Shown: piece by piece, positions 4,225 through 38,968 of the stretch
Numbering within the stretch: position 1 is the stretch's first letter
Layout: each line of letters begins with the position of its first letter
Assembly (NCBI GenBank): GCA_963816185.1
Contig: CAWFJJ010000024.1
Location: 256,001 to 320,000 of the forward strand
Reading direction: 5' to 3'
DNA length: 64,000 nt
Source of the DNA: Thermoanaerobaculia bacterium
Lineage (GTDB): Bacteria; Acidobacteriota; Thermoanaerobaculia; UBA5066
Notes under the pieces: generated by a model
The model's input: the letters and a program-made list of their open reading frames with translations, nothing else
Database searches by the model: none
What the model was told of the DNA's origin: nothing
Program-made: the position numbers and the translations under genes

Positions 4225-5807
<1,583 letters not shown>

Positions 5808-5991: not shown

Positions 5992-7537
5992 GGCCCTGAC
6001 CGCTCAGAACACGCTTCTCGTCGCCTCGGTGGCGCCGGCGTCGAACGCCGATGCCGTCCTCTCGCGCGAGGCCCTCGCCGATCTGCCTCCTTCGGCGGCG
6101 GTGGAATTACGCCTCGACGCGATGACCGAGGAGCCCGCATTCGGCGCGCTGCGCGCGCGCTTCGAAGGAAGAACACTCATCGCGACTGTCCGTTCCAAAG
6201 CCGAGGGCGGCGTGCTGCCGCGGACTGAAGAGGAAGAGAGGAGATTCTTAGAAGGTGCCCTCGCTGCGGGATTCGATCTCGCCGATGTCGAATTTCGCCG
6301 CGACGTGGGGGACCGCCTCGCCCGCATTCCTTCTTCTAAGAAAATCTCTTCCCTTCATGACCTTGAAGGCATCCCGGCCGACTTGAACACGGTCGTCACC
6401 CGGATGCTCTCGACCGGCGCGCGATACGTGAAGGTCGTCGCGACGGCGAACGATTCCGGCGACGCCCGCCGCCTCCTCGAGCTCCAGGCCGCGCACAGGG
6501 ACGGGCGCCTCACGGTGTTCGGAATGGGAGAGGCCGGCATCGCCACGCGGGCGCTCGCACCGTATCTCGGCGCGCCGCTCGCGTATGGCGCGCTTCTTCT
6601 CGGGCGGGCAACGGCGCCGGGCCAGCTCCTCGCCCGCGACCTCGTGGAGATCTACGGCGTGGCCCGGGCGCGAAAGGTGTCGAGTCTCTTCGGACTCCTT
6701 GGAGGCATGGTTTCGCACTCTCTCTCTCCGGTCATCCACAACGCCAACTTCGAGGCGCTCGGCCTCGACGCGATCTACGTACCATTTGCAATGCTCGTGC
6801 TTGGGAGAGAGCTCGAACCCCTCGTCAACTCGCTCGACACCCTCGGCGTTCGCCTCGCGGGCGCCTCCGTGACGATCCCCTTCAAGGAGGAGGCCGCGGC
6901 GCTTTCGGACGCGGGAGACGACGGCGAGAAAGCGGTCAACACGTTGCTGAGGTCGAGCGCTCCGGGCCAGCCGCTCAGGCTGCGAGCGGAAAACACCGAT
7001 CGCGCGGCGTTCGCGGCCGTGATCGAAGGGACGGGGGTCGCGCTCGTTCTCGGGGCGGGCGGCACCGCAAGGGTCGCCGTCGAAGTTCTGAGAAAGAGGA
7101 AATACGAGGTCTTTCTCATGAACCGAGGCGACGAGCGCGGCGAAGCGCTCGCGAAAGCCACGGGCGCCCATTACGTTTCTCAGAAATCCTCGATGGCCTT
7201 TCCCAGGCCGGACGTCCTCGTCAATGCCACGCCGCTCGGCCTGAAAGACGGCGATCCTCTTCCCTGCGAGCTGGGTCTTCTGCGCCGCGGGATGCTCGTC
7301 GTCGACGCGCCGTACCGCGCGACCGGCACGGAGCTCGTCAGGGCGGCACGCGCCGCGGGCGCGCGCGTCGTGGACGGCCAGACGCTGCTCCTTCTCCAGG
7401 CCGCGGGCCAGGCGACGCTTTTCACGGGCAAGAAGACGGCTCCGCGAGATCTTCTCGAGCGCCTGCCGTCGCATGCACGGCTGGCCTTCTCCTTTTTCGA
7501 AGAGCACCGCCCTGCGCTTCCGGGGATTTCGACATGA
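5990..7537 (+). CDS. aroDE: Bifunctional type I 3-dehydroquinate dehydratase / shikimate dehydrogenase
   Basis: ELRLD, IATVR, SLHD, YVKV and APGQ (AroD) followed by HSLSPVIHN, SVTIPFKE, AVNT, NTD, GAGG and NATPLG (AroE); TTG start after GGAGG. Confidence 0.92.
   Translation: MALTAQNTLLVASVAPASNADAVLSREALADLPPSAAVELRLDAMTEEPAFGALRARFEGRTLIATVRSKAEGGVLPRTEEEERRFLEGALAAGFDLADVEFRRDVGDRLARIPSSKKISSLHDLEGIPADLNTVVTRMLSTGARYVKVVATANDSGDARRLLELQAAHRDGRLTVFGMGEAGIATRALAPYLGAPLAYGALLLGRATAPGQLLARDLVEIYGVARARKVSSLFGLLGGMVSHSLSPVIHNANFEALGLDAIYVPFAMLVLGRELEPLVNSLDTLGVRLAGASVTIPFKEEAAALSDAGDDGEKAVNTLLRSSAPGQPLRLRAENTDRAAFAAVIEGTGVALVLGAGGTARVAVEVLRKRKYEVFLMNRGDERGEALAKATGAHYVSQKSSMAFPRPDVLVNATPLGLKDGDPLPCELGLLRRGMLVVDAPYRATGTELVRAARAAGARVVDGQTLLLLQAAGQATLFTGKKTAPRDLLERLPSHARLAFSFFEEHRPALPGIST
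6245..6342. repeat. Convergent motif pair in the AroD domain (6245 / 6334)
   Basis: GAAGAGAGGAGATTCTTAGAAGG ... CCTTCTTCTAAGAAAATCTCTTCC; cores 89 bp apart. Confidence 0.85.
7086..7185. repeat. Convergent motif pair in the AroE domain (7086 / 7177)
   Basis: GAAGTTCTGAGAAAGAGG ... GTTTCTCAGAAATCC; 91 bp apart. Confidence 0.6.
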
Positions 7538-9174
7538 ACACAGACCGACCCGACCCAAACCTGCCGCGCGGAGTTCAGGCGTTTCTTTTCGATGCGGCCG
7601 AGCGCCGCCGCAAGGCCGAGGACTCGGTCGTCCGGAGGCTCCATGAGGCCGGCCTGCGCGAGGTCATCCTTCCCGTTCTCGATTTCGCGGACCCGTATGC
7701 GGGCGTGACGGCCGAGGGCGACGAGCGCATCTATCGTTTTCTCGATCGGCAGGGAAACACGCTCTCGCTCAGGGCGGACTTCACGCCGATGGCCGCGCGC
7801 GTCGTCGCGCCGCGCCTCGGCACGATCTCGGGTCCTGTGTCCCTGTTCTATCGGGGCGATGTCGTGCGCGACGAAGAAATCGGAGTGGGGCGCCGCCGTG
7901 AGTTCGCTCAGGTGGGAGCCGAGCGTTACGGGGACGGGCGGCCGGAAGCGGACGGTGAGATGCTCGCCCTCGCCCTCTCGTGCCTCGGCGACGTCCCGGC
8001 CCCGCGCCTGAGGCTGACGCTGGGCTGGGCGGGCCTGCTCGAACGGCTGCTCGCCGCGGTCGCGCCGGCGCTCGCGCGCAGGGAGGGCTCCGGTTTGGCC
8101 GACGCGGCTTCGGCCGCCCGCTCGCGACACGTAACGCAGCTCGAGGCGCTGCTCCGGCGCTCGGGCGCAGTCGAAGCGGCCGCGACCGAGGTTGCGAGAG
8201 CGCTCCTCGTAGGCTTCGATCCCGGCTCGATTCTCTTCCGGCCGCCTCTCCTCGCGGGCGCCGCCGCCGAGCTCGCGCGGGCCGTGGCCGTGGCGCAAGC
8301 CGCACGGCCGGGCCTGTCGGTCGTCGTCGACCTGGCAGACGCGCCCGAGGCCCCCTACTACACGGGGCTCACGTTCAGCGTGGACGCGGCGGGCGGCGGC
8401 GGCACGATCGCCGGAGGCGGCCGGTACGACGGGCTCCTCGCGCGCTTCGGCACAGCCGCTCCGGCCCTCGGGTTCTGCATCGGACTCGAGGCGTTCGGCG
8501 CCGCCACGGATGCCGGCGAAGAGGACGAAACCCCGCGGCCGCTCCGGATCGCGGTCGGTAAGGGCCGGCTCCTCCCGCAGGCTCTCGCGGCGCTGCGCGC
8601 GGGAGGGGCCACATTCGACGAGCCGGACGGAAGGCGTCTCCTCGTGGCCGCGACGGACGGCGCGTTCGAGCTGCTCTTGCTTAAGGACGACGACGTGCCG
8701 ACGTACGTGGCGCACGGAGGAGCCGATCTCGGCATCGTGGGCAGCGACCGCGTCGCCGAGAGCGGAGAGGATGTCACGTCGCCCGTCGAGCTGCCTTTCG
8801 GCACTTGCCGGCTGTCGCTCATCGGGAGGGCCGGCGAAGCCTTCCGACCGAACGGGCAGCCCGTGCGCGTCGGCACGAAGTATCGTCGCCTCGCAGCGCG
8901 GTACTTCGACGAGAGGAAGATCGCCCACGAGATCGTCCCGCTGGCGGGCTCCGTGGAGCTCGCCGCGGCCCTGAAGCTCACGGACGTCGTCGTGGACCTG
9001 ATCGAGTCGGGGTCCACGATCGCCGCGAACGGCCTCGCCGAGATCGAGACGATTCTTCCAAGCTGCGCCACCCTCATCCTCGGCCGCGCGTCGCTCGTGG
9101 CGCGCCGGGCCGAGATCGCGGAGTTCGTCGAGCGGCTGCGCGCGAGCGTGCGCGCGGGAACCGGAAAACCATGA
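7534..9174 (+). CDS. hisZG: Fused ATP phosphoribosyltransferase regulatory subunit HisZ + short-form HisG
   Basis: LRADFT, REFAQVGAE, YYTG and GGGRYD (HisZ) in one frame with LRIAVGKGRL, DVPTYV, GSVELA and DLIESGST (HisG). Confidence 0.92.
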   Translation: MNTDRPDPNLPRGVQAFLFDAAERRRKAEDSVVRRLHEAGLREVILPVLDFADPYAGVTAEGDERIYRFLDRQGNTLSLRADFTPMAARVVAPRLGTISGPVSLFYRGDVVRDEEIGVGRRREFAQVGAERYGDGRPEADGEMLALALSCLGDVPAPRLRLTLGWAGLLERLLAAVAPALARREGSGLADAASAARSRHVTQLEALLRRSGAVEAAATEVARALLVGFDPGSILFRPPLLAGAAAELARAVAVAQAARPGLSVVVDLADAPEAPYYTGLTFSVDAAGGGGTIAGGGRYDGLLARFGTAAPALGFCIGLEAFGAATDAGEEDETPRPLRIAVGKGRLLPQALAALRAGGATFDEPDGRRLLVAATDGAFELLLLKDDDVPTYVAHGGADLGIVGSDRVAESGEDVTSPVELPFGTCRLSLIGRAGEAFRPNGQPVRVGTKYRRLAARYFDERKIAHEIVPLAGSVELAAALKLTDVVVDLIESGSTIAANGLAEIETILPSCATLILGRASLVARRAEIAEFVERLRASVRAGTGKP

Positions 9175-10594
9175 TGAAGATCGTCGATGCGCGCACGCGC
9201 GAGGGGCGACGCGAGCTGGAAGCTTTGCTGAAGAGCCGGCGGGGAGCGTCTCCCGACTTCGCCACGTTGAAGCTGGTGCTGCCGGTGGTGGAGGACGTTC
9301 TGCGAAGAGGGGAGCCCGCGCTGAGCAAATATGTAGAACGCTTCGACGGGCCGGGTGCACGCGGGCAAGGTTCGAAGAGAGCCGTTTCTTCGAATGGTAA
9401 AGAGGGGAAACGGCCCGGCGGAACGACGGCAGCGGCGCCCGTTGGCGATCAGCCCTATTACCGTTCTAAGAAAATCCTTATTGATCCCCGTCGCGAAAAG
9501 TTACCTCGTGTGGATCGTTCGTTCGCTGCCGCGTTCCGCCTCGCGCGGCAGCGCATCGAGGCCTATCACCGCAAACAGCTCTCGTACGAATCCGTGGGCT
9601 TCTCTTTCAAAGACTCTCTCGGCGTGTCGTTCGTCGAGAAACCCGTGCCGCTCGACTCCGTCGGCGTCTACGTGCCGGGAGGCCGGGCGTTCTATCCGTC
9701 GTCTGCTCCTGATGGGCGTCGTGCCGGCGCGGGTCGCCGGGGTGCCGCGCGTCGTCGTCGCGACGCCGCCCAACGCGTGGGCGTCGAGCCCGGAGCTGCG
9801 CTGGGCGGCGCGCGAGCTCAGCGTCGACGAAGTGCTCCTCGCGGGCGGGGCTCACGGCATCGCGGGGCTCGTCTCCGTCGCGGGAGTCGCGAAGATCGTG
9901 GGCCCGGGCAACCGCTTCGTCGCGGCGGCGAAACACATCGTGTCGGGCCTCGTGGCCGTGGACATGCCGGCCGGGCCTTCGGAAGTTCTCATCGTCGCGT
10001 CTCGCGACGCGGACCCGTCGCTCGTCGCCGCGGATCTCCTCGCGCAGGCCGAGCACGACCCGGACGCAAGCTGCCTGCTGTTCACGGATTCGAGAGAGCC
10101 TCGCTGCCGACGTGCGGGTCGAAGCGTGTCGCTGCAAATTGGGAGCCTCGAATTCGGACCTTTCTTCGAAAGTGAATGCAGCCACGGCGCGCGCCGCGCT
10201 GCTTCGGCGATGGCCGAATCTTCATTTTCAAAGAAATCTCTCGCGCCCTCGCTTTCGGCCGGCTCAAAGGTCGCCGCCGAGCACGTGCAGTTGATGGGCC
10301 GGAGTCCGCGGAGGGTCTCGCCCTGCGCTGCTCCCGACCGCCGGCGCGCTTTTCATCGGCTCGTCGACGCCGACCGCTCTCGGCGACTACCTCGCCGGCC
10401 CGAACCATGTGCTCCCGACGGGGGGCGCGGCGCGCAGCTTCTCGGGCCTCTCCGTGCGCGACTTCCTGCGCTGGGGCCGCTCCATGAAAGTGCCCGCGAG
10501 CGCAGCGCGCCGGCTCGCGCCTCCGGCCGCAGTTCTCGCGCGGTTCGAAGGCCTCGCGGCGCACGCGCGCTCTCTCGATCGGAGGGCGTCATGA
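9171..10594 (+). CDS. hisD: Histidinol dehydrogenase, broken by several frameshifts (probable assembly errors)
   Basis: GVYVPGG-YPSS, KIVGPGN, DMPAGPSE, QAEHDP, AAEH and GDYLAGPNHVLPT motifs spread over three frames; ATGA coupling at both ends. Confidence 0.88.
9298..9472. repeat. Motif cluster in hisD 5' region (forward 9298, 9386; reverse 9464)
   Basis: GTTTCTTCGAATGGTAAAGAGGGG ... CCCTATTACCGTTCTAAGAAAATCC; 78 bp apart, bracketing an in-frame insertion. Confidence 0.8.
10162..10235. repeat. Convergent motif pair in hisD 3' region (10162 / 10227)
   Basis: CTTTCTTCGAAAGTG ... CATTTTCAAAGAAATCTCTC; 65 bp apart in an indel-affected region. Confidence 0.65.
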
Positions 10595-12877: not shown

Positions 12878-13665
12878 GCGGCGAACGCCTGGCCCTGTGG
12901 CCCGCGATCGACCTCATGGGCGGGCACGTCGTGCGGCTGCTGAAGGGCAAACGCGAGGACGTGACGTTCTACGACGAGCCTCCCGCTCGGGCCGCGAGGA
13001 GGTTCGCCGACGAGGGCGCCGACGGCGTCCACGTCGTGGACCTCGATGCGGCGTTCGGGACCGGCAGCAACAAGAAAGAGATCGAAGAGATTCTCTCTGT
13101 TTCGGAGGCTGCGGGAGTCGCGGTGCAGGTCGGGGGAGGGATGCGCACACCCGCCGCTGTCGAGGATTTCTTAGAAAGGGTGAGTGGGGCCCGCGTAGTC
13201 GTAGGCAGCTTGCCGTTCCTCGACCGTCCCGCCTTCACGCACCTTCTAAGAAAATCTTCCTCTTCGTCTTCCTCTTCGACTTTATCTTGCCGCATCGTCG
13301 TCGCGCTCGACTGCAAGGACGGCCGGCCGACGGTGCGCGGGTGGACCGAGGACTCCGGGATGGGAGACGCCGTTTCCGTGGCCCGGTCGCTCGCGGACAT
13401 CGGCGTGTCCGCCCTTCTCGTGACGGACATCGCCCGCGACGGGGCGATGACGGGTCCCAATGTCGAGCTTCTGGCCGACGTGCGTGCCGTGTTTCCGGGC
13501 GAGATCCTCGCGTCGGGCGGCATGCGAGGCGAAGAGGACCTCGCTCCTGTCGGAGGCGCGCTCGCGGGCGGTGCCCGCGGTGCCATCTTCGGCCGATCTC
13601 TTCACGCCGGCGTCACGACCGTACCCCGGCTCCGGGCGGCGCGCGACCTCGGGAGGCCGTCATGA
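12874..13665 (+). CDS. hisA: ProFAR isomerase
   Basis: [30 protein letters not shown] and ASGG motifs; poly-Ser insertion. Confidence 0.95.
13168..13252. repeat. Convergent motif pair in hisA (13168 / 13244)
   Basis: GAGGATTTCTTAGAAAGGGTGAG ... CACCTTCTAAGAAAATCTTCCTCTTC; 76 bp apart. Confidence 0.85.
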
Positions 13666-15095: not shown

Positions 15096-16474
15096 AAGCG
15101 CCCGATCGCCTCGTCGTCGTCGAGCAGCCGGCCGATCTCACGACTCCGGTGGCGCTGATGCGGGGCCTTCTCGCGGCGGGCGGGCCTGCCTTCCTCCTCG
15201 AATCGGTGGAGGGCGGGGATCGCGTGGCGCGGTGGTCGTTTCTCGGCGCGTCGCCGTCGGGCGAGATCTCCGGCCGGGAGACGGACCCATTTGACGCCCT
15301 CCGGGCGCTCCCTCGCGACGACGCGGTGCCGGACGGCGACGACCTGCCGCCCTTCACGGGCGGGGCCGTCGGCTATGTGGGCTACGACGCCGTGCGGCGA
15401 CTCGAGCGGCTGCCCGACTCGAACCCCGATCCGATCGGACTGCCGGACGCCTGGTTCGGGATCTTCGACGCGGTCATCGCCTTCGATCACGCGCGGCATC
15501 GGCTCCTCTTCGTGACGCACGCGGGAGAGGGGACCGAAGAGGAGAGAAGAGCCTTCGAAAGGCTGCGGGAGCTCGAAGCGCGTGCCAAGGCCGCGCCCGC
15601 ATCGGCTGCTTCGGCGTCGCCCGCCTGTCCCTCTTTCGAAGAATCTCTTCCTCTTCCGTCCTTCCTGTCCGCGGTCGAGCGCGCGAAAGAGCACATACGC
15701 GCGGGCGACGTCTTCCAGGTCGTCCTGTCGCGGCGGTGGTCCGCGCCGTTCTCGGGCGATCCCTTCGCCGTGTATCGCGCCCTGCGCTCGCTCAGCCCGT
15801 CGCCGTACCAGTACTACCTGCGGACGCCTCACGGCGCGATTTTCGGTGCGTCACCCGAGCGCCTCGTCCACGTCGCCGCGGGCCACGAAGAGGCGACTGC
15901 CGAGACGATCCCGCTCGCCGGGACGCGACCGCGGGGCGCGACGCGCGAGGAAGACCTCGCCTTCGAGAGGGAGCTGCTCGCCGACCCGAAGGAGCGCGCC
16001 GAGCACGTCATGCTCGTGGACCTCGGGAGGAACGACCTCGGCCGGGTCGCGAAACCGGGCAGCGTCCGCGTGAAGGATTTCTTCCATGTCGAGCGCTATT
16101 CGCACGTCATGCACATCGCCTCGCGCGTGACGGGAGCCCTCGCGCCCGGCAAGGACGCCGTCGACGCGCTCGTGGCGACGTTTCCCGCGGGCACGCTGAC
16201 CGGGGCGCCGAAAATACGCGCGATGGAGATCATCGAGGATCTCGAGCCCGTGAGACGAGGCGCATACGGCGGCGCCGTAGGCTACCTCGATTTCGCCGGC
16301 AACCTCGACGTCGCAATTGCGATCCGCACGGCCATCGTAGCAAACGGCACGTTGCACGTGCAGGCCGGAGCTGGCATCGTGGCGGATTCGGATCCCGAGT
16401 CCGAGGCCACCGAGTGCGAGAACAAGGCGCGTGCCCTCATGCGCGCCGTGGAGAGAGCGGGGACGTACCGATGA
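15092..16474 (+). CDS. trpE: Anthranilate synthase component I
   Basis: [36 protein letters not shown] and GTLTGAPK motifs. Confidence 0.95.
15551..15643. repeat. Convergent motif pair in trpE (degenerate 15551 / 15635)
   Basis: GAGAGAAGAGCCTTCGAAAGG ... CCCTCTTTCGAAGAATCTCTTCCTCTTCC; 84 bp apart. Confidence 0.7.
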
Positions 16475-18071: not shown

Positions 18072-18139
18072 GGATTTCTTCGAAAGGGAAAAGGGAACGA
18101 GAGAGAAGATTGAAGATTTCTTAGAAGGGGTAAGAGGGG
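18068..18139. repeat. Purine-rich trpD-trpC spacer made of two tandem motif copies (18076, 18118)
   Basis: GAGGATTTCTTCGAAAGGG and GAAGATTTCTTAGAAGGGGTAAGAGGGG, 42 bp apart; degenerate reverse copy at 18310 inside trpC. Confidence 0.85.
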
Positions 18140-19732
18140 ATGGGCGGTTCGGTTCTGGGCGAGATTCTCGCGGCAAGGAGGCGCCGTATCGCGGCGGGGG
18201 AGTTCACGGCGCACACGGCCGCCGCCGCGCGCGCTGCCGCGGGATTTTCGCCAGCGCCCGACGCGATGCCCGACGGAGCGCGCTTCACCGCCGCTCTTTC
18301 TTCTTCCTCTTCTAAGCGAAATCTTCCTCTTTCTCTTTCTTTCTTTCTTGCGGAAATCAAGCACCGCTCGCCGAGCGCGGGTCTGATCCTGCCCGACGTC
18401 CCGGCGCGCATCGAGGAGGTGGCGCGCGCTTATCGGCGCGGCGGGGCCTCGGCTCTGTCCGTCGTCATCGAGCAGGACTACTTCGGGGGCGATCCGTCCT
18501 GGCTGCCGCGCGCCAGGGCGGCGTCGGGGCTCCCGGTCCTGATGAAGGACTTCGTGGTGGACGAGACCCAGCTCGATTTCGCCGCCGCTCTGGGCGCCGA
18601 CGCCGTGCTCCTGATCGCCGCGGCTCTCGACGGCGCGGCCCTCGCGCGGCTCTACGCGGCGGCCCTCGAACGCGGTCTCGCGGCTCTCGTGGAGGCGCAC
18701 GACGAGGCCGAGGTTGAACGGGCGCTCGACGCGGGCGCGGAGATGATCGGCGTGAACTCACGCGACCTGAGAACGTTCGAGGTCGACCTGCCGGGCATGG
18801 CGCGCCTCGGCGCGCTCCTGCCGGCGTCCGTAGTGCGCGTGGCCGAAAGCGGCATCAAATCGCGGGGCGACGTCGAGGCGCTCGCCGCCGCCGGCTACGG
18901 CGCCTTCCTGGTGGGAGAGGCGCTTCTCAAGGCGCCCGACCCCGCAGCGATGCTGCGAGGGCTCCGCGGCGAGAACCCCACGGAGGTCAAGATCTGCGGG
19001 ATCACGCGGGAGGAGGACGTCGACATCTGCCTGGAACTGGGCGTCGACTGGATCGGCCTCGTCTTCGCGCCGAGGTCTCCTCGCTGCCTGACGCCGGAAG
19101 AGGGGAGACTTCTACGAATGAAAGCGAAAGGCGAAGGGCACCGGGGATTTCTTCGAATGAAGGACGAACGGAACGGAGCCGGGGTCCGCAAACACGGCGC
19201 AGCGGCGGCGGGAGGCGTCGGCGCCGGCGCGGTGAAGGGTGTCGTCGCGGTGTTCGACGGGAACAACGAGGAGGAGATTCGACGAGTGATCGAACTCGTG
19301 CGCCCCGACGTCGTTCAAATGCCCCTCTCGCCTCGTTCACTTTCCCAGGAGTCCTTTTCTTCGGCCCCCTCCTTTCTTCCCCCTTCTAAGAAATCCTTCT
19401 CTTCGGACATCACGGTGTGGAACACGATCCGCGTCGGCCGCGACGACCTCTCCTCCGCGAGGGAAGCCGAAGGCGACGCGCTCCACTTCGATACGTCCGT
19501 CGCAGGAGCGAGCGGCGGCACCGGCAGAGTCTTCAACTGGAGCCTGCTGGAAGGAATCGATCGCTCCCGCCCCGTGGTGCTCGCGGGCGGGCTGAAGCCC
19601 GAGAACGTCGCGGAAGCAGTGAGAAGGGTGAGGCCCGACGTCGTAGACGTGGCCTCGGGAGTGGAGAAGGCGCCGGGAATCAAGGACCCGGCGAAAATCG
19701 CCGCGTTCGTGAGGGAGGTGCGACGTGCCTGA
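18140..19732 (+). CDS. trpCF: Bifunctional indole-3-glycerol phosphate synthase / PRA isomerase with insertions
   Basis: [27 protein letters not shown] (TrpC); VKICGIT, GGTG-F-W, LAGGL, DVASGVE (TrpF). Confidence 0.93.
19110..19392. repeat. Motif cluster in the TrpF domain (forward 19110, 19149; reverse degenerate 19342, 19384)
   Basis: GGAGACTTCTACGAATG, GGGATTTCTTCGAATG and CCCCCTTCTAAGAAATCCTTCTCTTC; tandem spacings 39 and 42 bp. Confidence 0.8.
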
Positions 19733-21751: not shown

Positions 21752-21752
21752 C

Positions 21753-22517: not shown

Positions 22518-22540
22518 CCTAAAGCGTTACGGGGAACCGG

Positions 22541-23359: not shown

Positions 23360-23406
23360 AGCTCTGAACCGGGAAAGTCCGCTGGCGCTCGGTTAAGCTC
23401 GGGCTC

Positions 23407-24429: not shown

Positions 24430-24528
24430 GCCCGCGCACGGTCGGTTGGAATTTCGGCCCCCCGGTGTGAGAATCTGACCCGTGCCGACAACCCGGGTCG
24501 TGCGGGCAGGGCGCCCTGCGAGGTCCTT

Positions 24529-25185: not shown

Positions 25186-25192
25186 TCGCGGC

Positions 25193-27546: not shown

Positions 27547-30013
27547 CGTCTTCTCGACTGCCGGAAACGGGCAGCTCTCCCCCTCTTACCCTTTCGAAGA
27601 AATCCTTGGTTCTTCCTCCCACGTCCAGACACGCGAGCTCGCCGGGCTCGTCGAGGTACCAGTCGGAGGGCAGGTAGCGGCTGTACGGGGCCTGCAGGAA
27701 GCGCCGGCAGGCGAGGACGACGACGCCCGTGTCGGTGCCCGAGCGAATGAGGCGCCCCGCGCTCTGCACGACGCGCGTCATGCCGGGGATGACGTACGCG
27801 TACTCGAAACCGCGCTCGAACCGCTCCTCGAAGTAGCGGCGCATGCGCTCCTGCTCGAAGCGGACCATGGGCAGACCGGGCGAGACGACGACGACGGCCT
27901 GAAGCATCTCGCCCGGGTAGTCGACGCCCTCGGCGAACGCGCCTCCCGATACGGCGAAGACGACGACGGGCGCTCCGCCGTCCTTCATCGCCGCGAGGAC
28001 GGAGTTCCGCTCCAGCTCGGTCGATCGATCGGACGGCCTGAGAACGCGGCGCCCGGCCAGCGCGGGCAGGTGGGCGCGCACCTCGTCGAGAAAGCGGTAC
28101 GACGGGAAGAGCGCCAGCATGTTGCCCGGGCACGCGCGCGCCACGTCCGCGACGAGGGCCGCGAGGCGCGGGGCGCCGCGCCCGCGCGCCGCGTACGTGG
28201 TATCCACGTCCGGCGCGACGAGGACGGAGCGGTTCTCGCGCGGAAAGGGCGAGGGAAGGCGGAGGACCGACGTGCGGTCGGGGTCGAGGCCGAGGAGATC
28301 GCGGTAGAACTCGGGCGGAGAGAGCGTGGCGGACATCGAGACCGTGGCGGCCGCCGCGTTCAGGGTCTCGCCGAGGAGCTTCGAGGGATCCTTGCAGAGG
28401 ATCGCGAGCCGCGCGCCGCCCCTGCCGCGCGCCGCGAGGACGTCGAAGGGCCCCTCGGACATGGCACGGCCTGGCGGGGGCACGAATTTTGACACGTCGT
28501 GAAACCGCGCAAACGAGAAGTAGAGGTCGAGAACGGGATCGTCGGGCACACGCTCGCCGCCGGCGCGCAGGTCCGCGAGGTGGCGCACGAGAAGGGACTC
28601 GAAGTCGAGGCGCAAGTCGTCGAGACGCGCATCGTCCAGGGCCACGAGATCGACGGGCTCGCTCTCGTCCTGGGGAAGGACGGCGGCCGCGTCCGCGACG
28701 AGCTTGCGCAGACGCCGCGCGGCCTCGCCCGCGTCCCAGGCCGTCTTCGCGTTCGAGACGCCGATGCGCTCCTCGAGCGATGCCAGGGAAGAGTCGGAGA
28801 GCTCGGGCGAGTAGTAGCCGCGTCCGCGGTCCACGAGGTTGTGAGCCTCGTCGACGAGGAGGATCGATTCGGAGAGCACGGAGGGGTCGCGCGCGCCTGC
28901 AAGCGCGACCACCGGGTCGAAGACGTAGTTGTAGTCGCCGAGAACGACGTCGGCCTGCTCGGCGAGCTCGAGGGAAACTTCGAAGGGGCAGACGGTCTCG
29001 TTGCGGGCGGCCTCGAAGACGGTGTCCGGGTCGAGGTGGCGGTGTCTCTCGAGGAGCCGGTCGAGGAGGCCCGAAGCCTCCATCTTGGCGCCGTAGTCCT
29101 TCGCGTACGGGCAGTGGTTCTCGTGGCACAGCACGACGTCGTTTGCGCACATGCGCTCTTTCGCGCGGAGCCTGACGGACCGAAAGGACTCGCCGTCGAT
29201 CGCGGCCAGGGTCTTTTCGTAGATCTCCTGCTGCGTCGTCTTCGCCGTGAGGACGAAGAGGCGGCGGTGCGACTCGAGAGCGCCGACGAGAAGGGGATGG
29301 AGTGCGGCGGCCGTCTTCCCGATGCCGGTCGGGGCCTCGACCAGGAGATGCTCGCCGTGTGCGACCGCACGCGCGACGGCGGAAGCCATCTCTCGCTGGC
29401 CGGTCCGGAAGCGCGCGTGCGGGAAGGCGAGCGTCGCGGCCTCGGCGGCTTTCGCCTCGGCAAGGGCCCGTTCCTCGAGGAACGCGTCCAGAAGCATCCG
29501 CGTACGGTCCACGAGGTCCTCGAGGGTCTTCTCAGGCTCATGCGACACGTCGAGGACCTTCGTCGCGCCCGTCTCGATGTCCGCGAGAATGAGGCGCCCG
29601 TGAACGGCGCGCCCTTCGGCAGCGGCGACGGCCTGCATGTACCAGCGAAGCTGGAGCCGAAAGCGCTCGAGGCGCGGGGATCCGGGAAGCTTCGCGAGAT
29701 CCTCGGCGAAATGGAGCGACTTGACCTCGTCCACGACGACCCGACCGCCCTCCTCGAAGCGGCCGTCGAGCCGCCCTTCGAGCACTGCGGTGAAGTCGTC
29801 CACCGCGTAGGAGAGCCGAATCGCTTTCTCGACCTCGTAGCCGGGCACGCTCGCGAGGCTCTCACCGAGCACGCGCCGGTGCACCGCCTGGCCGATCCAG
29901 AGTCGCTCGAAGCCCTCGCCCCGGTCGAAGCCGGCCCGTCGCGCGACGCCGCCGAGAAGGGTCCCGGGGGAAACCGCGATCGTCTTCGCCGCGAGGTCGA
30001 CCGTGAGCGCCAC
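27491..30013 (-). CDS. Rad3/XPD/DinG-family Fe-S helicase with N-terminal PD-(D/E)XK nuclease-like domain
   Basis: EAPTGIGKT, Cys cluster (C-ANDVVL-C-HENH-C...CPF), VDEAHN, SAT, QSAGRLIR; N-terminal EGRLDG-DEVKS-QL-Y. Confidence 0.9.
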   Translation of the reverse strand: MALTVDLAAKTIAVSPGTLLGGVARRAGFDRGEGFERLWIGQAVHRRVLGESLASVPGYEVEKAIRLSYAVDDFTAVLEGRLDGRFEEGGRVVVDEVKSLHFAEDLAKLPGSPRLERFRLQLRWYMQAVAAAEGRAVHGRLILADIETGATKVLDVSHEPEKTLEDLVDRTRMLLDAFLEERALAEAKAAEAATLAFPHARFRTGQREMASAVARAVAHGEHLLVEAPTGIGKTAAALHPLLVGALESHRRLFVLTAKTTQQEIYEKTLAAIDGESFRSVRLRAKERMCANDVVLCHENHCPYAKDYGAKMEASGLLDRLLERHRHLDPDTVFEAARNETVCPFEVSLELAEQADVVLGDYNYVFDPVVALAGARDPSVLSESILLVDEAHNLVDRGRGYYSPELSDSSLASLEERIGVSNAKTAWDAGEAARRLRKLVADAAAVLPQDESEPVDLVALDDARLDDLRLDFESLLVRHLADLRAGGERVPDDPVLDLYFSFARFHDVSKFVPPPGRAMSEGPFDVLAARGRGGARLAILCKDPSKLLGETLNAAAATVSMSATLSPPEFYRDLLGLDPDRTSVLRLPSPFPRENRSVLVAPDVDTTYAARGRGAPRLAALVADVARACPGNMLALFPSYRFLDEVRAHLPALAGRRVLRPSDRSTELERNSVLAAMKDGGAPVVVFAVSGGAFAEGVDYPGEMLQAVVVVSPGLPMVRFEQERMRRYFEERFERGFEYAYVIPGMTRVVQSAGRLIRSGTDTGVVVLACRRFLQAPYSRYLPSDWYLDEPGELACLDVGGRTKDFFERVRGGELPVSGSREDAISSPPTIRTPRRGGRLR
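27593..27601. repeat. Single motif copy near the helicase 3' end
   Basis: Minus strand reads AAGGATTTCTTCGAAAGGGTAAGAGGGGGAG, nearly identical to the 18118 copy. Confidence 0.75.
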
Positions 30014-30074
30014 GGCCGATTGTAGGGCGGCTTCCCACTATCCCGGCGGGCGTTGTTCAGGTAAAATGTATTCG

Positions 30075-33723: not shown

Positions 33724-33738
33724 GCGGCGGAGGATAGC

Positions 33739-34515
33739 GTGCCGCACCTCCATCCGCTCCCCGCGTCCTTCTATCGCCGTGACACGGCCCTCGTCGCCCG
33801 GGATCTTCTCGGCTGCCGCCTCGTCCGGCGATTCCCGGGCGGGAAAAGCCGAGCGGTCGTGATCGTCGAAACCGAGGCCTATCTCGGGGAGAAGGACCGC
33901 GCCGCGCACACCTGGAACGGCCGCCGGACGCCCCGCGTCGCCCCCATGTGGGGGCCGGGCGGGCACGCGTACGTCTACTTCGTCTACGGCATGCACTTCT
34001 GCATGAACGTCGTGACGCAAGAGGAAGGGACGCCGGAAGCAGTTCTGCTCAGAGCAGGGATTCCGGAAGAACTCCATTCTTCTGATATGCGGCGGCTGCT
34101 GATGCAGCCGCCGACGGGGCAGAAATCTGCGTCTCGAACGTCCGGAGTCAAGGGCGCGCTACCCGCGCCGCGAAGCGGTCTTCGACCCTTGACACCGGAC
34201 GTTCGAGGAATACGTTCCCCTGCTCGTCGGCCGCAGAGCGGCCGACGAATAGCAGAAATCTCTTCTCTTCTCCTCGCCTCCGGTCCCGCAAAGCTCTGCG
34301 CGTACCTTCAAATCACGGCCGCATTGTCCGGAGCTTCTCTCTCCGGTCCCGAGCTGATGATTTCCCGCGGCCCGCGCGCGCGCTTCGACGTGCTCGTGGG
34401 GCCGCGCGTCGGCGTGGACTACGCGGGAGAGGCCGCCGCGTGGCCGCTGCGCTTCGCGGTCGCGGGCTGCCCGGCCGTGACGCGGCGCGCTCTCCTCGGC
34501 CCCTTCGTGACCTGA
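33739..34515 (+). CDS. mpg: DNA-3-methyladenine glycosylase (AAG/MPG family) with a ~60 aa insertion
   Basis: IVETEAY, YVYFVYGMH, AVLLRA, SGPAKLC and PRVGV motifs. Confidence 0.92.
   Translation: MPHLHPLPASFYRRDTALVARDLLGCRLVRRFPGGKSRAVVIVETEAYLGEKDRAAHTWNGRRTPRVAPMWGPGGHAYVYFVYGMHFCMNVVTQEEGTPEAVLLRAGIPEELHSSDMRRLLMQPPTGQKSASRTSGVKGALPAPRSGLRPLTPDVRGIRSPARRPQSGRRIAEISSLLLASGPAKLCAYLQITAALSGASLSGPELMISRGPRARFDVLVGPRVGVDYAGEAAAWPLRFAVAGCPAVTRRALLGPFVT
34080..34257. repeat. Palindromic REP/MITE-like element inserted in frame in mpg
   Basis: Imperfect terminal inverted repeats (16/20); 10- and 11-bp terminal hairpins; central 21-bp inverted repeat at 34134-34154 / 34186-34206 with 1 mismatch. 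Confidence 0.75.
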
Positions 34516-34516
34516 T

Positions 34517-36226
34517 CTAGAGCGTCTTGAGGTCGGCGAGGGAGGAAGCCGTCACGAGGCAGTTCTTGCCGCTGCGTTTCGCCTGGTAGAGGGCCTGGTC
34601 CGCGCGCTCGATGAGCGAGCGCTTGGTGCCGGCGTCCTCCGGGTAGCAGGAGAGACCGAGCGAGATCGTCATGGCGAGCGCGTGATCGAGCTGAGGGGCG
34701 ACGAAGAGACGTCCGGCCACGCGGTTTCGCAGCCGGTCTGCCACGACCCAGGCCTTCGCGGGCGTCGTTTCCGGAAAAATGAGCGCGAACTCCTCGCCGC
34801 CGTAACGTGCCACCGTGTCCATCTCCCGGACGCCCTTCGTCAGCTCGTCCACGAGCCCGCGGAGCACGAGATCGCCCACCGGGTGCCCCCAGCGGTCGTT
34901 GATCTTCTTGAAGTCGTCGATGTCGAGCATGATGAGCGCGAGCGGCTGCCCGCTGCGTTCGTGGCGGGCGAGCTCACGGGAAAGCGTCTCCTGGAAATAC
35001 CGGTGATTAAACGCTTCGGTGAGCGAATCGCGTACCGACATCTGCCGCGTCGCCTCGTACGCTTTTGCCGATTGGATGGCCGTAACGGCCTGGTTCGCGA
35101 AAATCTCGAGGGCCTGGACGTCCTCGAGGCGCGGGACGAGCCCGCCCCTCGGCTGGTCGACCTGCAGGGTTCCGACGACCTGATCGCCGGCCGTAAGCGG
35201 GACGAAAAGCAGGTCGTCCGGATGCCACGCGCCCGGTGCCGTGCTGCGCCGGCGGCGGTCGATCCGGCCGGAATTGTCGACGGACACGTCGCGGTCGAGG
35301 TGGCTCACGAAGTAGGACTTCGAGATCCGGAAATGCTCGCCGAACCATCGCGCGATCTCCTCACGCGGCACTTTTCGCGGCGGGGCACCCGGCGACGTTT
35401 CGTCGAATCCGACCTGTGCGCGGCGCTCGAAGACGTTCTCGACAGGATCGAACAGGGAAAGCACGACCACGCGATAGCCGAGGCTGCGGTGGACCGCCTG
35501 GACGATGCTCTGTACGAGGAGCTCGAGAGTCAGATGTGCCTTCAGCTCGTTGGAGACGTCGAGAATGCGCTGCAGCATCTCGGCCCGTCCCTGCAGACGT
35601 TCGTTTACGGTCTGCATCTGCCGTCTGAGGTTGCGGTCCTGAAGGGCCAGGGCCACGTGGTCGGACACGACCGAGAGCTCCTGGAGCGTCTGAGGCGTGA
35701 CGAGGGACGGGTCATCCGATTCGGCGATGAGAATGCCGGCAATGAGCGCGGGAGTCTGGAGAGGCAGGAAGACCTGATACGGAAAGCGGGGATTCAGGAC
35801 GAGGTCGCGGTCGGGTCCGCTTGCCACGCGGGGCATGGGTGAGGCCGGCAGGAAAGGCGATTCGAGGTCCTTTTGGGAGGCGAGCCAGTCGAGAAACGGC
35901 TGCCGTTCGAGCGTCACGTCGCCGCCGAAGGAGACGAGCGCCTGCCCGTCAAGATCCTCCTCGTACGAGACCACCGCCAAGGCTCGGATTGGCAGCGCCT
36001 GGCGAAGGGTGTCGAAGAGCCGCGCGAGGATCTCCTCTCCCGGAGCGACGCTGGATACGATCGCGGTGAGCTCGCGGAGCGTCGCGAGCTCGCGGTTCTT
36101 GCGCGACAGCTCGGCGGCGCCGGACCGAGCCCGCGCGAGCTTTCTCGTGACGACGATGACGGCCACGAGAAGACCCACGGCGATCACCGTGAACAGGACC
36201 GGGCGGAAGTCGAGAAGCGACGTCAC
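34517..36226 (-). CDS. Membrane-anchored GAF-GAF diguanylate cyclase
   Basis: N-terminal TM, two GAF-like domains, DIDDFKKIND-GH-GD and RYGGEEF with RxxD I-site (REMD); GTGA coupling. Confidence 0.92.
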   Translation of the reverse strand: MTSLLDFRPVLFTVIAVGLLVAVIVVTRKLARARSGAAELSRKNRELATLRELTAIVSSVAPGEEILARLFDTLRQALPIRALAVVSYEEDLDGQALVSFGGDVTLERQPFLDWLASQKDLESPFLPASPMPRVASGPDRDLVLNPRFPYQVFLPLQTPALIAGILIAESDDPSLVTPQTLQELSVVSDHVALALQDRNLRRQMQTVNERLQGRAEMLQRILDVSNELKAHLTLELLVQSIVQAVHRSLGYRVVVLSLFDPVENVFERRAQVGFDETSPGAPPRKVPREEIARWFGEHFRISKSYFVSHLDRDVSVDNSGRIDRRRRSTAPGAWHPDDLLFVPLTAGDQVVGTLQVDQPRGGLVPRLEDVQALEIFANQAVTAIQSAKAYEATRQMSVRDSLTEAFNHRYFQETLSRELARHERSGQPLALIMLDIDDFKKINDRWGHPVGDLVLRGLVDELTKGVREMDTVARYGGEEFALIFPETTPAKAWVVADRLRNRVAGRLFVAPQLDHALAMTISLGLSCYPEDAGTKRSLIERADQALYQAKRSGKNCLVTASSLADLKTL

Positions 36227-37590
36227 TTGAAGGAAACGACGCCGCTCTTCGTGAGCTTGTGAAATACGCGCATCACTTCGTGCTCGGGAAACGGCGAGAT
36301 GCGGGCGATCGAGCGGACGTCCCACATGCCGTTGATGCGCGAGACGATGAACGCCTCGGACGGCGTGAACGGGAAGGACATGAGCTCCTCCATCGGTCTC
36401 GTGAGGATGGGGACCGCCCCGGCGGGGACCTTCGGAAGAACTTCGGAGCCGGCCGAAGAGTCGGTGGGAGCCGGAACGGGCCTGGCAGCGGGAGCGGACC
36501 CGGCGGAGGTTGCGCCGGGCGGGACAGGCGACGATGGCCGCGTCGCCGAGCCGGACGAGACGCCTGCGGCTGCTGGCCCCGGGGTCCTGACCGCCGGCGT
36601 CGCGGGCAGGGTGGCGGTCCTCACGCGGGGTGCGGTGGCGTCGGAACTGTCGCCGGACGCGCGCCGCGCGGCCGTTTCGCCGGATTCGGGCCGGCGCTTG
36701 AGGAACTGGTTGTACGTGGTCGGCACGGGCGTCCGCAGAGCGGGCGGAGCCAGCACGCCCTCGTCGAGTATCGGCGCCGGCGGCACCCCGTCGGGAATCG
36801 TATGCAGATCGCCGGACATCAGCGGATCGAACGAAGAAGAGTCCTCCTCCACGAGCTCGGCATCCTCGAACACGGGCTCCGACGTCGTCTCCTCCCGTTC
36901 CCCGATGAGCCTCACGTGGCCCGTGAGCATCAAGTCGTACATCAGCTTGGCGACGTGGAAATCGGGGTTGTGCGTCTCGAGTGCGATCTGGTCGATCGCG
37001 CGGTGGCCGTTCGCCGCGCTGAGGATCATTTTGTCGCGCTCTCCGAGATCTTCCTCGACGGGCATGACCACCGACGGAATGACGCGCATGGTGGGGACGC
37101 GCGTCCTGATGCGCTGCCACTCATCGTAGCGGCGCAGGCCCTCCATGACGATGCCCGTGACGTCCGAGGAGATCGGAACCATCGGAAGGGCCGGAATCTC
37201 CCCGTCGATGAACGCGAACGAGCCTTCGGTCCACAGGAAAATGTCGTAGATCGTCTCGGCGGCCTTCAGCCTCACGAGGTCCGCCAGCTCCTCTTCCTTG
37301 ATCGCCCCGATCATGACGAGAATCTTGCCGAGGAGAATCCGGGACTCCTGCTGGACCTCCAGCGCCCGGATGAGCTCCTCCTCGGTGATGAAGCCGAAAC
37401 CGACGAGAAAGCGCCCCAGATGCTCGCGCTCGAGCGTGGATGAAGAGGATGTGACGCGGCCTTTGTTGAAGTAGATCCGTTTCTCGCCAGGCGCCCCCCG
37501 GACGACGAGCGTCCCCGTCTTCAAGCCGGTCGAGAGCCACTGAAGCAGCTCCGACAACTGCATCGTGCGCAGATTTCCTGCGATGGCCAT
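36223..37590 (-). CDS. DUF4388 (PatA-N-like) domain protein
   Basis: GNL-M-L-ELLQWL...KTGTL...G-V and W-EG-F-F pattern; long Pro/Ala/Ser linker. Confidence 0.8.
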   Translation of the reverse strand: MAIAGNLRTMQLSELLQWLSTGLKTGTLVVRGAPGEKRIYFNKGRVTSSSSTLEREHLGRFLVGFGFITEEELIRALEVQQESRILLGKILVMIGAIKEEELADLVRLKAAETIYDIFLWTEGSFAFIDGEIPALPMVPISSDVTGIVMEGLRRYDEWQRIRTRVPTMRVIPSVVMPVEEDLGERDKMILSAANGHRAIDQIALETHNPDFHVAKLMYDLMLTGHVRLIGEREETTSEPVFEDAELVEEDSSSFDPLMSGDLHTIPDGVPPAPILDEGVLAPPALRTPVPTTYNQFLKRRPESGETAARRASGDSSDATAPRVRTATLPATPAVRTPGPAAAGVSSGSATRPSSPVPPGATSAGSAPAARPVPAPTDSSAGSEVLPKVPAGAVPILTRPMEELMSFPFTPSEAFIVSRINGMWDVRSIARISPFPEHEVMRVFHKLTKSGVVSFK

Positions 37591-37631
37591 CCTACGCAAT
37601 TGTAGCGCGTAAGAGCCTGACCCGAGCGGCT

Positions 37632-38819
37632 TTACTCCATCGGAGGGTTATACGACGGAATCCCTGTGACGGCCTGCCCGAGAACGAGCGTGTGGATGTC
37701 GTGCGTGCCCTCGTACGTGAAAACCGACTCGATGTTCGCGAGATGCCGGAAGACCGGATACTCGCCGACGATTCCGTTCGCTCCGAGAATCTCTCGCGCA
37801 AGCTTCGCGCACTCGCGCGCGACCCAGACGTTGTTGCGTTTGACCATCGAGACGTGCTCGGGCTTCATCGTGCCGGCGTCTTTCATCCGGCCCAGCCTGA
37901 GGGCGAGCAGCTGCCCCTTCGTGATCTCCGTGATCATGAACGCGAACTTCGCCTGGACCATCTGATGCGAGGCGATCGGCCGGTCTTTGAACTGCTTGCG
38001 GCTCTTCGCGTAGTCGAGGGCGCATGTGTACGTGGCCATTGCGGAGCCGAGGCCGCCCCAAGCGATACCGTATCGAGCCTGCGTGAGGCAGGAAAGCGGT
38101 CCCTTGAGCCCTTCGACGCCCGGGAGGACGCTCGTTTCGGGCACGCGGACGTCCTCGAAGACGAGCTGCGACGTGACGGAGGCGCGGAGGGACATCTTCA
38201 TGCGGTGCTCGGGTGCCGTGAAGCCCTTCATTCCGCGTTCCACGAGAAATCCGCGCACGGGGCCGTTCACATCGCCGACCTTCGCCCACACGACGGCCAC
38301 GTCGGCGATCGAGCCATTCGTGATCCAGGACTTGGCGCCGTTCAGGACCCAGTCGTTCCCGTCTTTCCTGGCGACCGTGAGCATGCCTGACGGGTTCGAG
38401 CCGAAGTCGGGCTCGGTCAGGCCGAAGCACCCGATGCTCTCGCCCTTCGCGAGACTCGGGATCCAACGATCCTTCTGCTCCTTCGAGCCGTACGTGAAAA
38501 TCGGATACATGACAAGCGAAGACTGGACGGAGACGAACGAGCGGAGCCCGGAGTCGCCTCGCTCGAGCTCCTGCGCCATGAGGCCATAGGCGACGTTGTT
38601 CAGCCCCGGCAGCCCGTACTCGGCCATCGTGGATCCGAAGAGGTTCATCGCCGCCATCTTCGGGACGAGCTCCTTCGGGAAACGGCCCTCGTACGCGCAC
38701 TCCTCGATGATCGGGAGGACGTCTTCGTCCACGAACCCTCGCACGAGATCGCGCACGGCCCGCTCGTCCTCCGAGAACATGTCTTCCAGCCCTAGAAAAT
38801 CGACTCCGGAAAAGCTCAC
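37632..38819 (-). CDS. Acyl-CoA dehydrogenase, glutaryl-CoA dehydrogenase-like
   Basis: ELERGDSGLRSFVSVQSSL, GCFGLTEPDFGS, ILGANG and TYEGTHDIH motifs. Confidence 0.92.
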   Translation of the reverse strand: MSFSGVDFLGLEDMFSEDERAVRDLVRGFVDEDVLPIIEECAYEGRFPKELVPKMAAMNLFGSTMAEYGLPGLNNVAYGLMAQELERGDSGLRSFVSVQSSLVMYPIFTYGSKEQKDRWIPSLAKGESIGCFGLTEPDFGSNPSGMLTVARKDGNDWVLNGAKSWITNGSIADVAVVWAKVGDVNGPVRGFLVERGMKGFTAPEHRMKMSLRASVTSQLVFEDVRVPETSVLPGVEGLKGPLSCLTQARYGIAWGGLGSAMATYTCALDYAKSRKQFKDRPIASHQMVQAKFAFMITEITKGQLLALRLGRMKDAGTMKPEHVSMVKRNNVWVARECAKLAREILGANGIVGEYPVFRHLANIESVFTYEGTHDIHTLVLGQAVTGIPSYNPPME

Positions 38820-38852
38820 AGGTCCTCCAGCGATGGAAGAGTACCGAAGAAT

Positions 38853-38936
38853 TTCTTAGAAGGGTGAACGAGCGCGGTGTACTGGGCGCCGCCTCAACAC
38901 AACACGCGCGACGCTGCTTTCTTAACCTTCTAAGAA
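38853..38936. repeat. Intergenic convergent motif pair in a divergent promoter region
   Basis: GAAGAATTTCTTAGAAGGGTGA ... TTAACCTTCTAAGAAAAGG; 75 bp apart. Confidence 0.85.
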
Positions 38937-38968
38937 AAGGTGCTCTTCGAACAAGTCATAATCGCGAT

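Follow-up and report, generated by a model that had tools for sequence, protein, structure and literature searches.

Short interspersed repeats of bacterial genomes are usually either mobile DNA, such as repetitive extragenic palindromic (REP) sequences and the doublets known as REPINs, miniature inverted-repeat transposable elements (MITEs) and Rickettsia palindromic elements (RPEs), or uptake signals spread by drive. In this work, we describe a short asymmetric motif with the core TTTCTTNGAA, found in a 64-kb stretch (hereafter the window) of the genome of a Thermoanaerobaculia bacterium (Acidobacteriota; assembly GCA_963816185.1, contig CAWFJJ010000024.1, positions 256,001 to 320,000 of the forward strand), whose copies stand as facing pairs both in the window and genome-wide. 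The motif displays the geometry of mobile repeats together with the mode of origin of uptake signals but falls short of what defines either class, and no known family of repeats accounts for it.

Among the described systems, the bacterial interspersed mosaic elements (BIMEs) of Escherichia coli are extragenic mosaics with defined linker types, whose REP pairs are bound by gyrase or IHF. As oppositely oriented repeat pairs that dock host proteins bending or wrapping DNA, they constitute the nearest precedent for the mechanism favoured below, although they differ in their extragenic, mosaic nature, and binding of gyrase or IHF to the present motif is without support. RPEs are found in frame within essential open reading frames (ORFs), adding peptide segments at tolerated places, and share their whole sequence. 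Some units of our motif are also in-frame insertions, for instance hisD unit 1 (34 codons); however, RPEs are whole-element copies arising by insertion, whereas the copies of our motif have only their ends in common and several of them arose without any insertion. Likewise, MITE copies share an interior derived from one parent, unlike the present pairs, which share only their ends, and no autonomous element with the same terminal inverted repeats was found among six widely spaced pairs examined. Relative to the sister genera, hisD unit 1 is a 102-bp insertion, of which genus members without the unit keep the right end, and four other units show no net insertion.

In the report on the REPINs of Pseudomonas and Enterobacteria by Bertels and Rainey (2011), 93% of the doublets are described as inverted, with spacings of 71 and 110 bp; the elements are extragenic and linked to REP-associated tyrosine transposases (RAYTs), compensatory changes are common, and doublets are better conserved than singlets (PMC3116915). 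The motif resembles REPINs in being a short sequence occurring mostly as inverted doublets with a preferred spacing (76-77 bp here), a poorly conserved spacer, hundreds of copies and vertical inheritance. It differs from them in that 81 of 217 paired units lie within genes, including hisD, hisA, aroD, aroE, trpE and cysS, that partner-specific pairing is absent, unlike the compensatory hairpin changes of REPINs, that doublets have no advantage over single sites (p = 0.30), and that a Y1 transposase is encoded in only 4 of 29 genomes of the genus. Regarding uptake signals, namely the DNA uptake sequences (DUS) of Neisseriaceae and the uptake signal sequences (USS) of Pasteurellaceae, a recent preprint states that intergenic copies are often inverted repeats in terminators, that copies in ORFs are frame-constrained, and that they occupy up to ~2% of the chromosome (bioRxiv 10.1101/2025.10.24.684340). 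Our motif is also taxon-specific, over-represented on both strands, embedded in ORFs by substitution, commoner between genes and found in inverted pairs, as DUS and USS sometimes are. Conversely, DUS and USS work as single sites, are far denser and form inverted pairs mostly in terminators, whereas here the pair is obligatory (64.5% of sites with a convergent partner vs 0.3% with a divergent one), the interior measures at least 36 bp and units between convergent genes are few (9 of 217).

Motif sequence and head-to-head pairing

In k-mer counts of the window, AT-rich words such as GATTTCTTCGAA and CCTTCTAAGAAA are conspicuous against a background of 67-70% GC. The core occurs there in 19 exact copies and, with up to one mismatch, in 34, compared with 4.30 ± 2.18 expected, and none of 100 shuffles gave 34 matches. 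In the assembly to which the window belongs (5,088,052 bp, 30 contigs) 430 exact cores were found, against ~4 estimated by chance (an arithmetic estimate from base composition only), the centre base being A in 239, C in 152, T in 28 and G in 11. Alignment of these 430 sites revealed an asymmetric motif, with a purine-rich tract from approximately -20 to -2, an A, the core, GG(G/T)GAA, and purines to approximately +20; a single copy therefore reads purine tract, A-TTTCTT(A/C)GAA-GG(G/T)GAA, purines, and spans ~25-40 bp. The derived weight matrix retrieved 716 sites genome-wide (~1 per 7 kb), compared with 56 in a reversed-sequence control, at equal frequency on both strands in every large contig.

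The initial annotation of the window had proposed a spatial grammar for the motif, which proved to be real, as facing pairs are the rule both in the window and in the whole genome. Among site pairs no more than 400 bp apart, 275 are convergent, 71 tandem and only 12 divergent. A convergent partner lies 30-260 bp inward of 64.5% of 715 sites and a divergent, outward partner is found for 0.3%; when a weak threshold is used for the partner, these values become 80.1% and 2.8%. The same is observed with adjacent exact cores, of which 78 of 118 forward/reverse neighbours are within 200 bp, compared with 3 of 116 reverse/forward, 10 of 86 forward/forward and 6 of 91 reverse/reverse. Furthermore, 227 of 242 adjacent forward/reverse pairs are within 400 bp, while the next forward site after a reverse site is nearly always distant. 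Within a pair, the copies are arranged head to head, with the GGTGAA side inward.

The spacing of convergent pairs has its mode at 76-77 bp, with a sharp peak at 75-79 bp (33 pairs) and a tail to ~260 bp. Thus, the range of 75-91 bp initially put forward contains the peak and is too narrow as a range, the 5th-95th percentiles being 60-175 bp; the interior is loose in length (~36-250 bp, most often ~57 bp between cores). The individual window spacings of the initial annotation, measured here between the leftmost positions of the cores, were all reproduced within 1 bp, the offset being due to a different definition of the core. The genome-wide histogram of inter-site distances by orientation is neither flat nor randomly oriented. 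A ~10.5-bp periodicity was also looked for by a Fourier test from which pairs at 93-95 bp were dropped; the power was 3.03 at 10.5 bp (p = 0.048) and 5.49 at 9.5 bp (p = 0.006), with p values uncorrected for six periods and a null that smooths away the peak at 76-77 bp. Since this single peak inflates the power at both periods, a helical ladder in the spacings is not convincing. Among same-orientation sites, the smallest 60 of 71 distances include 25 at 24-60 bp and 20 at 72-90 bp.

A further spike of 13 pairs is present at 94 bp, and 13 of the 17 pairs at 93-95 bp belong to paralogous Ser/Thr-kinase genes, in the same place of the kinase domain as judged from the translations. These 13 paralogues (spacing 94-95 bp) are distributed over contigs C4, C5, C6, C8, C23, C24 (602898-620203) and C28 of the genome (G000), with five kinase genes within 18 kb on C24 and a poly-Ser insert after the reverse copy. 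Apart from this family, the sequences between partners are unrelated to one another, as had been proposed; no 8-mer occurs in more than 13 of 233 interiors, and the top words correspond to the kinase family or to extra copies of the motif.

The location of the units was assessed with a crude codon-usage gene finder, whose calls cover 80.5% of the genome and miss real genes. Of 217 paired units, 81 are intragenic, 12 overlap a gene end, 93 lie between co-directional genes, 20 between divergent and 9 between convergent genes, and 2 are at contig ends. Exact cores reach 236.3 per Mb outside called genes, compared with 47.6 per Mb within them. At the centre base, A and C were counted 92 and 79 times in coding sequence and 147 and 73 times in non-coding sequence (Fisher p = 0.009), C being relatively commoner in genes; with C at the centre, no stop codon arises in any frame. 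Solo sites in genes display no significant strand bias (66 sense vs 48 antisense). The densest 10-kb bin of the genome (11 sites) falls in the aro-his-trp gene string of the window, a 15-kb operon with genes identified by Pfam. In another contig, a ComEA-like gene with two HHH_3 domains (G000:C1:554689-555318) carries a motif pair, with spacing 139, between both domains.

Several other origins of the motif were considered and rejected. A fixed distance to start codons was discarded, as the matrix of the 430 sites contains no start-codon signal downstream of the core. An assembly artefact or adapter was ruled out because the motif recurs in all 12 other genomes of the genus, many of them fragmented assemblies of short-read type. 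A promoter function was discarded as well, the rRNA promoter region being of the ordinary -35/-10 type, judged by eye, and devoid of the motif. A link to phages was not sustained either, as the 34 IMG/VR contigs containing an 18-mer of the motif have one copy each, are all of 28-46% GC, and none displays a convergent partner. No Rfam family was matched in the window, and in the literature, supplements not covered, we found no description of the motif and nothing relevant on repeats of Thermoanaerobaculia or uptake sequences of Acidobacteria. Taken together with its inner flank, the reverse motif (TCACC TTCTAAGAAATC) is similar to the organism's own 16S rRNA at its 3' end and to the start of the following spacer (TCACC TCCT TTCTAAGGGATC; G000:C1:445508-445650), with the anti-Shine-Dalgarno core missing; no complementary motif was found in the 16S leader, and the resemblance may be a coincidence.

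Conservation within one genus and origin of the units

The motif is confined to one genus. A 14-mer version is present in 29-122 copies (both strands) in each of 12 other genus genomes, with none in the reversed control, and in 0-1 copies in eight genomes from two other families of the order, one of the single matches being in G018, a genome flagged as unpublished. Of 151 genomes sampled across the class, a gapped pattern of the whole pair was detected in 11, each of them from this genus (the own genome and 10 of 10 relatives), and in none of six genomes from four other genera of the family or of 134 from other families. Altogether, 14 different genus genomes carry the motif (12 by the 14-mer and 10 by the paired pattern, both sets overlapping).

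Synteny of the 16.5-kb cysS-aro-his-trp region extends to 12 relatives, with 77-88% identity, and nearly every site is orthologous in most of the 13 genomes, with variation by point changes and, in few sites, by insertions or deletions. The core columns (mean of 16 sites) reach a pairwise identity of 0.75-0.92, compared with a region mean of 0.72 and 0.45-0.65 in the surrounding 50 columns, and thus stand out as conserved within the protein segments under the least constraint, though with some ascertainment bias as the sites were selected in the window. In the window, an intergenic pair at 38852-38861 and 38928-38937 (convergent, spacing 76) stands between divergent acyl-CoA dehydrogenase and class-II tRNA synthetase genes. 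At one orthologous intergenic unit of the genome, both ends are retained in two relatives, in which the interior is shorter and unalignable.

Comparison with four other genera of the family, in which the operon is syntenic with 64-71% identity, revealed how the units came into being. Several of them overlie native coding sequence with little or no change in length. In aroD, the pair at 6244-6253 (forward, one mismatch) and 6334-6343 (reverse; spacing 90) involves no net change (160 vs 157-160 bp in the four sister genera), and the net differences are of only 3-6 bp both in aroE (degenerate convergent cores at 7086-7095 and 7177-7186, spacing 91; 155 vs 149-152 bp) and in trpE (degenerate forward core at ~15551 and reverse core with one mismatch at 15635-15644, spacing 84; 160 vs 154-157 bp), where the pair occupies the linker between the two TrpE domains. 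The hisA pair (13167-13176 and 13244-13253, convergent, spacing 77) also lies on native HisA codons, followed by a poly-Ser tract of variable length. This unit measures 160 bp vs 130-136 bp in the sister genera, the extra length corresponding mainly to a gap before the reverse site in three of the four genera and to the pyrimidine (poly-Ser) tract after it, and no insertion is present at the left site. There, the residues D-F-L-E-R are encoded by GAT TTC CTG GAG AGG in the nearest sister genus and by GAT TTC TTA GAA AGG in this one, and at the right site CTG, AGG and AGA became CTA, AGA and AAA. These changes are GC-to-AT and mostly synonymous, in a genome with ~85% GC at third codon positions, in which TTA accounts for 0.02% of codons; in the crude gene set, 33 of the 319 in-frame TTA codons are inside the motif.

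Other units are insertions. The whole of hisD unit 1 (9385-9394 forward, 9464-9473 reverse, spacing 79) is an in-frame insertion of 102 bp, or 34 codons (155 bp, compared with 53 bp in all four sister genera), and its right half alone is kept in 3 of 12 genus genomes. The cysS, trpD-trpC and trpF units are also insertions relative to the sister genera. In hisD unit 2 (10161-10170 and 10227-10236, convergent, spacing 66), which has native HisD sequence as its interior and is present in 12 of 12 aligned genus genomes, both modes are combined, the left site falling within ~21-27 bp of extra sequence and the right one being made by substitution. Therefore, the units have two origins, namely substitution at near-matches and short in-frame insertion. 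Near-motifs were identified in the nearest sister genus (g8), in aroE (L086:4837-4846, one mismatch, then AAGAAGGGG) at the position of the forward site of this genus, and in hisA as proto-sites on the same residues, which indicates that the proto-sites are older than the genus. A dialect of the motif in the sister genera was discarded, as the core with up to one mismatch occurs 1 and 0 times in the syntenic operons of g8 and g10, the level of chance, and no AT-rich 9-mer exceeds four copies across the four sister-genus operons together.

The tandem doublets behave differently from the convergent pairs. Their spacings of 36-42 bp, noted initially as a second element of the grammar, were reproduced (36, 42 and 39 bp), and we read them as lineage-specific duplications. 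The cysS doublet (forward cores at 5258-5267 and 5294-5303, 36 bp apart) is inside a purine-rich in-frame insertion of ~70 bp, in a segment of 90 bp vs 14-21 bp in the sister genera, which are without it; a reverse motif with one mismatch at 5622..5631, the convergent partner of 5294 at 328 bp, is followed by a Ser-rich pyrimidine tract and is likewise an insertion (70 vs 1-24 bp). According to Pfam and to comparison with solved CysS structures, these inserts are located between the catalytic and DALR domains. At the trpD-trpC junction, which is 115-140 bp longer than in the sister genera, the forward cores at 18075-18084 and 18117-18126 (42 bp apart) are just 5' of the trpC start, and a degenerate reverse motif at 18310..18319, in the N-terminal region of trpC, is the convergent partner of 18117 at 193 bp. 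In trpF, a degenerate forward site (19109-19118) and an exact one (19148-19157), 39 bp apart, have their convergent partner, a reverse motif, at 19384..19393. Of 13 genus genomes, just two, the window and L017, share the cysS doublet; the upstream trpD-trpC copy is seen only in the window and L015, and the exact trpF forward copy in 4 of 13 genomes (the window, L020, L021 and, with one mismatch, L025). All tandem extra copies are in purine tracts of variable length, and in one relative three forward copies recur with a period of 69 bp, a single reverse copy coming after them. Given that the doublets are lineage-specific and confined to such tracts, they are young local duplications, whereas the convergent pairs are old. 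As for the pyrimidine flanks, that of some units is a (TCCGAA)n microsatellite with species-variable copy number (L066 and orthologues; G000:C1:135530-135560), and that of others is (TCTTCC)n-like and translated as poly-Ser.

Level of recognition and competing explanations

Two mechanisms had been suggested in the initial annotation for the paired arrangement, a multimeric protein wrapping or looping the DNA and long-range mRNA stems; the former, with each site recognised as DNA, fits the results given below, on inferential grounds, and the latter is not supported, since partners do not covary and deviations from the consensus are independent of the transcribed strand. The two arms of a pair match each other no better than shuffled partners, each being held to the consensus. 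Ungapped arm identity was 8.69 for true vs 9.04 for shuffled partners of 30 positions in the outer flanks (p = 0.88) and 9.05 vs 9.25 of 25 in the inner flanks (p = 0.79), and duplex energies allowing gaps were -17.33 vs -17.31 kcal/mol (inner, permutation p = 0.47) and -13.36 vs -12.94 kcal/mol (outer, p = 0.20). Partner pairing was also not detected in the 74-80 bp class (n = 38; p = 0.79, 0.86 and 0.66), and a value of p = 0.017 in the outer flanks of the other spacings was put down to shared richness of the tracts. The centre bases of partners match in 56% of pairs, with 53% expected (p = 0.23), and 44% of the would-be stems thus carry a central mismatch. If pairing took place in RNA, an excess of A>G and C>U changes would be expected on the transcribed strand. 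The ratio of T>C to A>G deviations, counted in the orientation of the motif, was 22:6 at 137 sense sites and 35:10 at 127 antisense sites (Fisher p = 1.0), and the same picture was obtained in the operon alignment. All 38 units with a spacing of 74-80 bp fold with their arms paired, as follows on paper from two consensus copies and a GC-rich interior. The arms are thus each constrained to the consensus and not to each other.

The explanation that we favour, with a probability of roughly 0.4, is that the pairs are DNA-level recognition sites for a putative two-fold-symmetric factor. Each copy would be read as double-stranded DNA by a sequence-specific protein, and the two copies would be read together by a two-fold-symmetric dimer or tetramer bridging or bending the intervening DNA, which would explain why only the head-to-head arrangement is kept while the interior is free. 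Candidates for such a factor would include architectural or topological proteins and domesticated recombinases or transposases. New sites would arise by point mutation at near-matches and be fixed by selection or by transmission bias, the tandem doublets being possible by-products of local duplication in slippery purine tracts. In a more tentative and broader form of this proposal, the pairs might constitute a genus-wide chromosomal punctuation, a two-fold-symmetric DNA machine (a novel protein of the nucleoid or of DNA topology, or else a domesticated recombinase) reading them at several hundred loci, with the pairs written by AT-ward synonymous substitution against a strong GC bias, essential frames included; if so, they would represent a class of cis-element that spreads in a manner of its own, distinct from both mobile elements and uptake signals. 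The motif shows that essential genes can be made to carry a paired signal of more than 20 bp, even where this requires the rarest codons, and can retain it for as long as the genus has existed, which implies a strong reader at the DNA level. The reader, if found, would add to the factors that act in chromosome organisation, recombination or gene transfer in Acidobacteriota, and the units offer a natural case of non-coding signals and protein coding on the same bases.

Several observations weigh against recognition by such a factor. No reader protein has been identified or shortlisted, and a rigid complex would not give spacings as broad as 60-175 bp without clean helical periodicity. The density of sites is five times higher outside genes (236 vs 48 per Mb), in calls that are crude (80.5% coverage) and made on an assembly with 1-bp insertions and deletions, and most intergenic units (93 of 122) lie between co-directional genes, as REP-type mRNA elements are distributed. 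Some units are insertions of ~100 bp, which point mutation leaves unexplained. Finally, any two consensus copies pair by default into a stem of 10-18 bp, and a role of RNA or single-stranded DNA needing just this pairing is compatible with the data, the 44% of centre mismatches notwithstanding.

We regard as unlikely, for its part, a REP-like RNA element in which the copies are the base of a long stem-loop that protects upstream mRNA, directs processing or acts as a translation-sensitive terminator in long operons. Strand symmetry is in keeping with it, every transcript reading purine arm, interior and pyrimidine arm, as are the folding of all 38 units of the 74-80 bp class, the prevalence of co-directional neighbours and the densest bin being the aro-his-trp operon; however, no class tested displays partner-specific complementarity, sense and antisense sites lack an asymmetry of G-U type, no Rfam family is matched, no more than 9 of 217 units are flanked by convergent genes, and loops of 36-250 nt are unlike those of terminators. 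A similarly low weight is given to an uptake or recombination-type signal spread by molecular drive, in which the motif would be favoured as substrate by a machinery of DNA uptake or recombination, and better-matching alleles would be transmitted more and accumulate by point mutation at near-matches, as in DUS and USS. The contrast with uptake sequences drawn in the initial annotation is weaker than claimed, since our motif, like them, is written into genes by substitution, in place at proto-sites; it is also genus-specific, equal on both strands and conserved at orthologous positions, its stop-avoiding centre base is enriched in genes (92:79 vs 147:73, p = 0.009), and inverted repeats and frame constraint in ORFs are attributed to DUS and USS as well in the preprint (bioRxiv 10.1101/2025.10.24.684340). 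What drive on single sites does not predict is a second site 50-200 bp away in one orientation only, nor insertions of ~100 bp, and ~1 site per 7 kb is far below the up to ~2% of the chromosome given there for DUS and USS. The genome encodes ComEC, DprA and HHH_3 (ComEA-like) proteins, but competence genes are widespread and therefore not diagnostic, and the search for ComP_DUS was uninformative, with no match in any control genome. We know of no uptake bias in this bacterial group.

Less probable still is an old, decayed mobile element of MITE or REPIN type, whose terminal inverted repeats have stayed recognisable while the interior drifted. Its convergent-only geometry and preferred length would be those of transposon ends or of REP doublets, as described for REPINs (PMC3116915), and the 102-bp insertion of hisD unit 1 relative to four sister genera, the presence/absence differences among genus members and the higher density outside genes point in the same direction. 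Nevertheless, several units lie on native codons without net insertion, interiors are unrelated even in the modal size class, and "empty" hisD alleles keep one end. The ends are conserved across species and the interiors are not, unlike in a dead selfish element; compensatory changes are missing, and paired sites (mean 27.52 bits, n = 466) score no better than solo sites (27.16 bits, n = 250; Mann-Whitney p = 0.30). PF01797, the Y1 transposase of RAYTs, has no match in the own genome (94.9% complete) and occurs in 4 of 29 genus genomes, not coextensive with the motif. Eight adjacent convergent pairs are 400-4000 bp apart; the six examined are mutually unrelated and contain ordinary genes by translation, with no autonomous element among them. 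A simple transposon with a conserved interior, already doubted in the initial annotation, is thus at odds with the unrelated interiors, and no transposon with such ends was found among the pairs examined. The inverted copies might also be recombinase sites that flip the interior, which we consider very improbable. Geometry is its only support, with inverted repeats flanking a short segment, some in genes, whereas in hisA, hisD, aroD and the kinases the interior consists of native coding sequence that is essential, and ~57 bp is very short for synapsis. In Logan contigs of public runs (shares ≤0.26), which drop rare forms, no strand-changing joint was listed at a unit.

Other features of the window

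In addition to the pairs described above, a solo reverse motif is located at 27593..27602, between two convergent genes, with no forward partner (up to one mismatch) within 260 bp. A group at 54335..54539 consists of a reverse site (54335-54344) followed by a convergent pair (54418-54427 and 54530-54539, spacing 112), in a gene assigned to rimO by the initial annotation only. At trpE, one RNA-library contig (X20) joins 15522 to 15659, omitting the unit and both its tracts (15523-15658, 136 bp). This skip may stem from a relative without the trpE unit and is not evidence of splicing; similar skips are found at places of trpG and trpD that contain no unit.

Compared with all relatives, the window displays single-base insertions or deletions at 9704, ~10097, ~10210 and ~10326 and elsewhere in the 5.8-19.7 kb region, which leave hisD in at least four reading frames. 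At 9704, the base is also missing from the contigs of two public runs (X2, 4/4 depth; X20, 20/20). Errors of long-read assembly are a more probable cause than pseudogene formation. The AT-rich, low-complexity units coincide with trouble spots of gene callers and of long-read assemblies. Finally, the aro-his-trp genes are packed, with overlapping ends, and a single open frame at 7534-9174 fuses a HisZ-like (tRNA-synt_His) domain with HisG.

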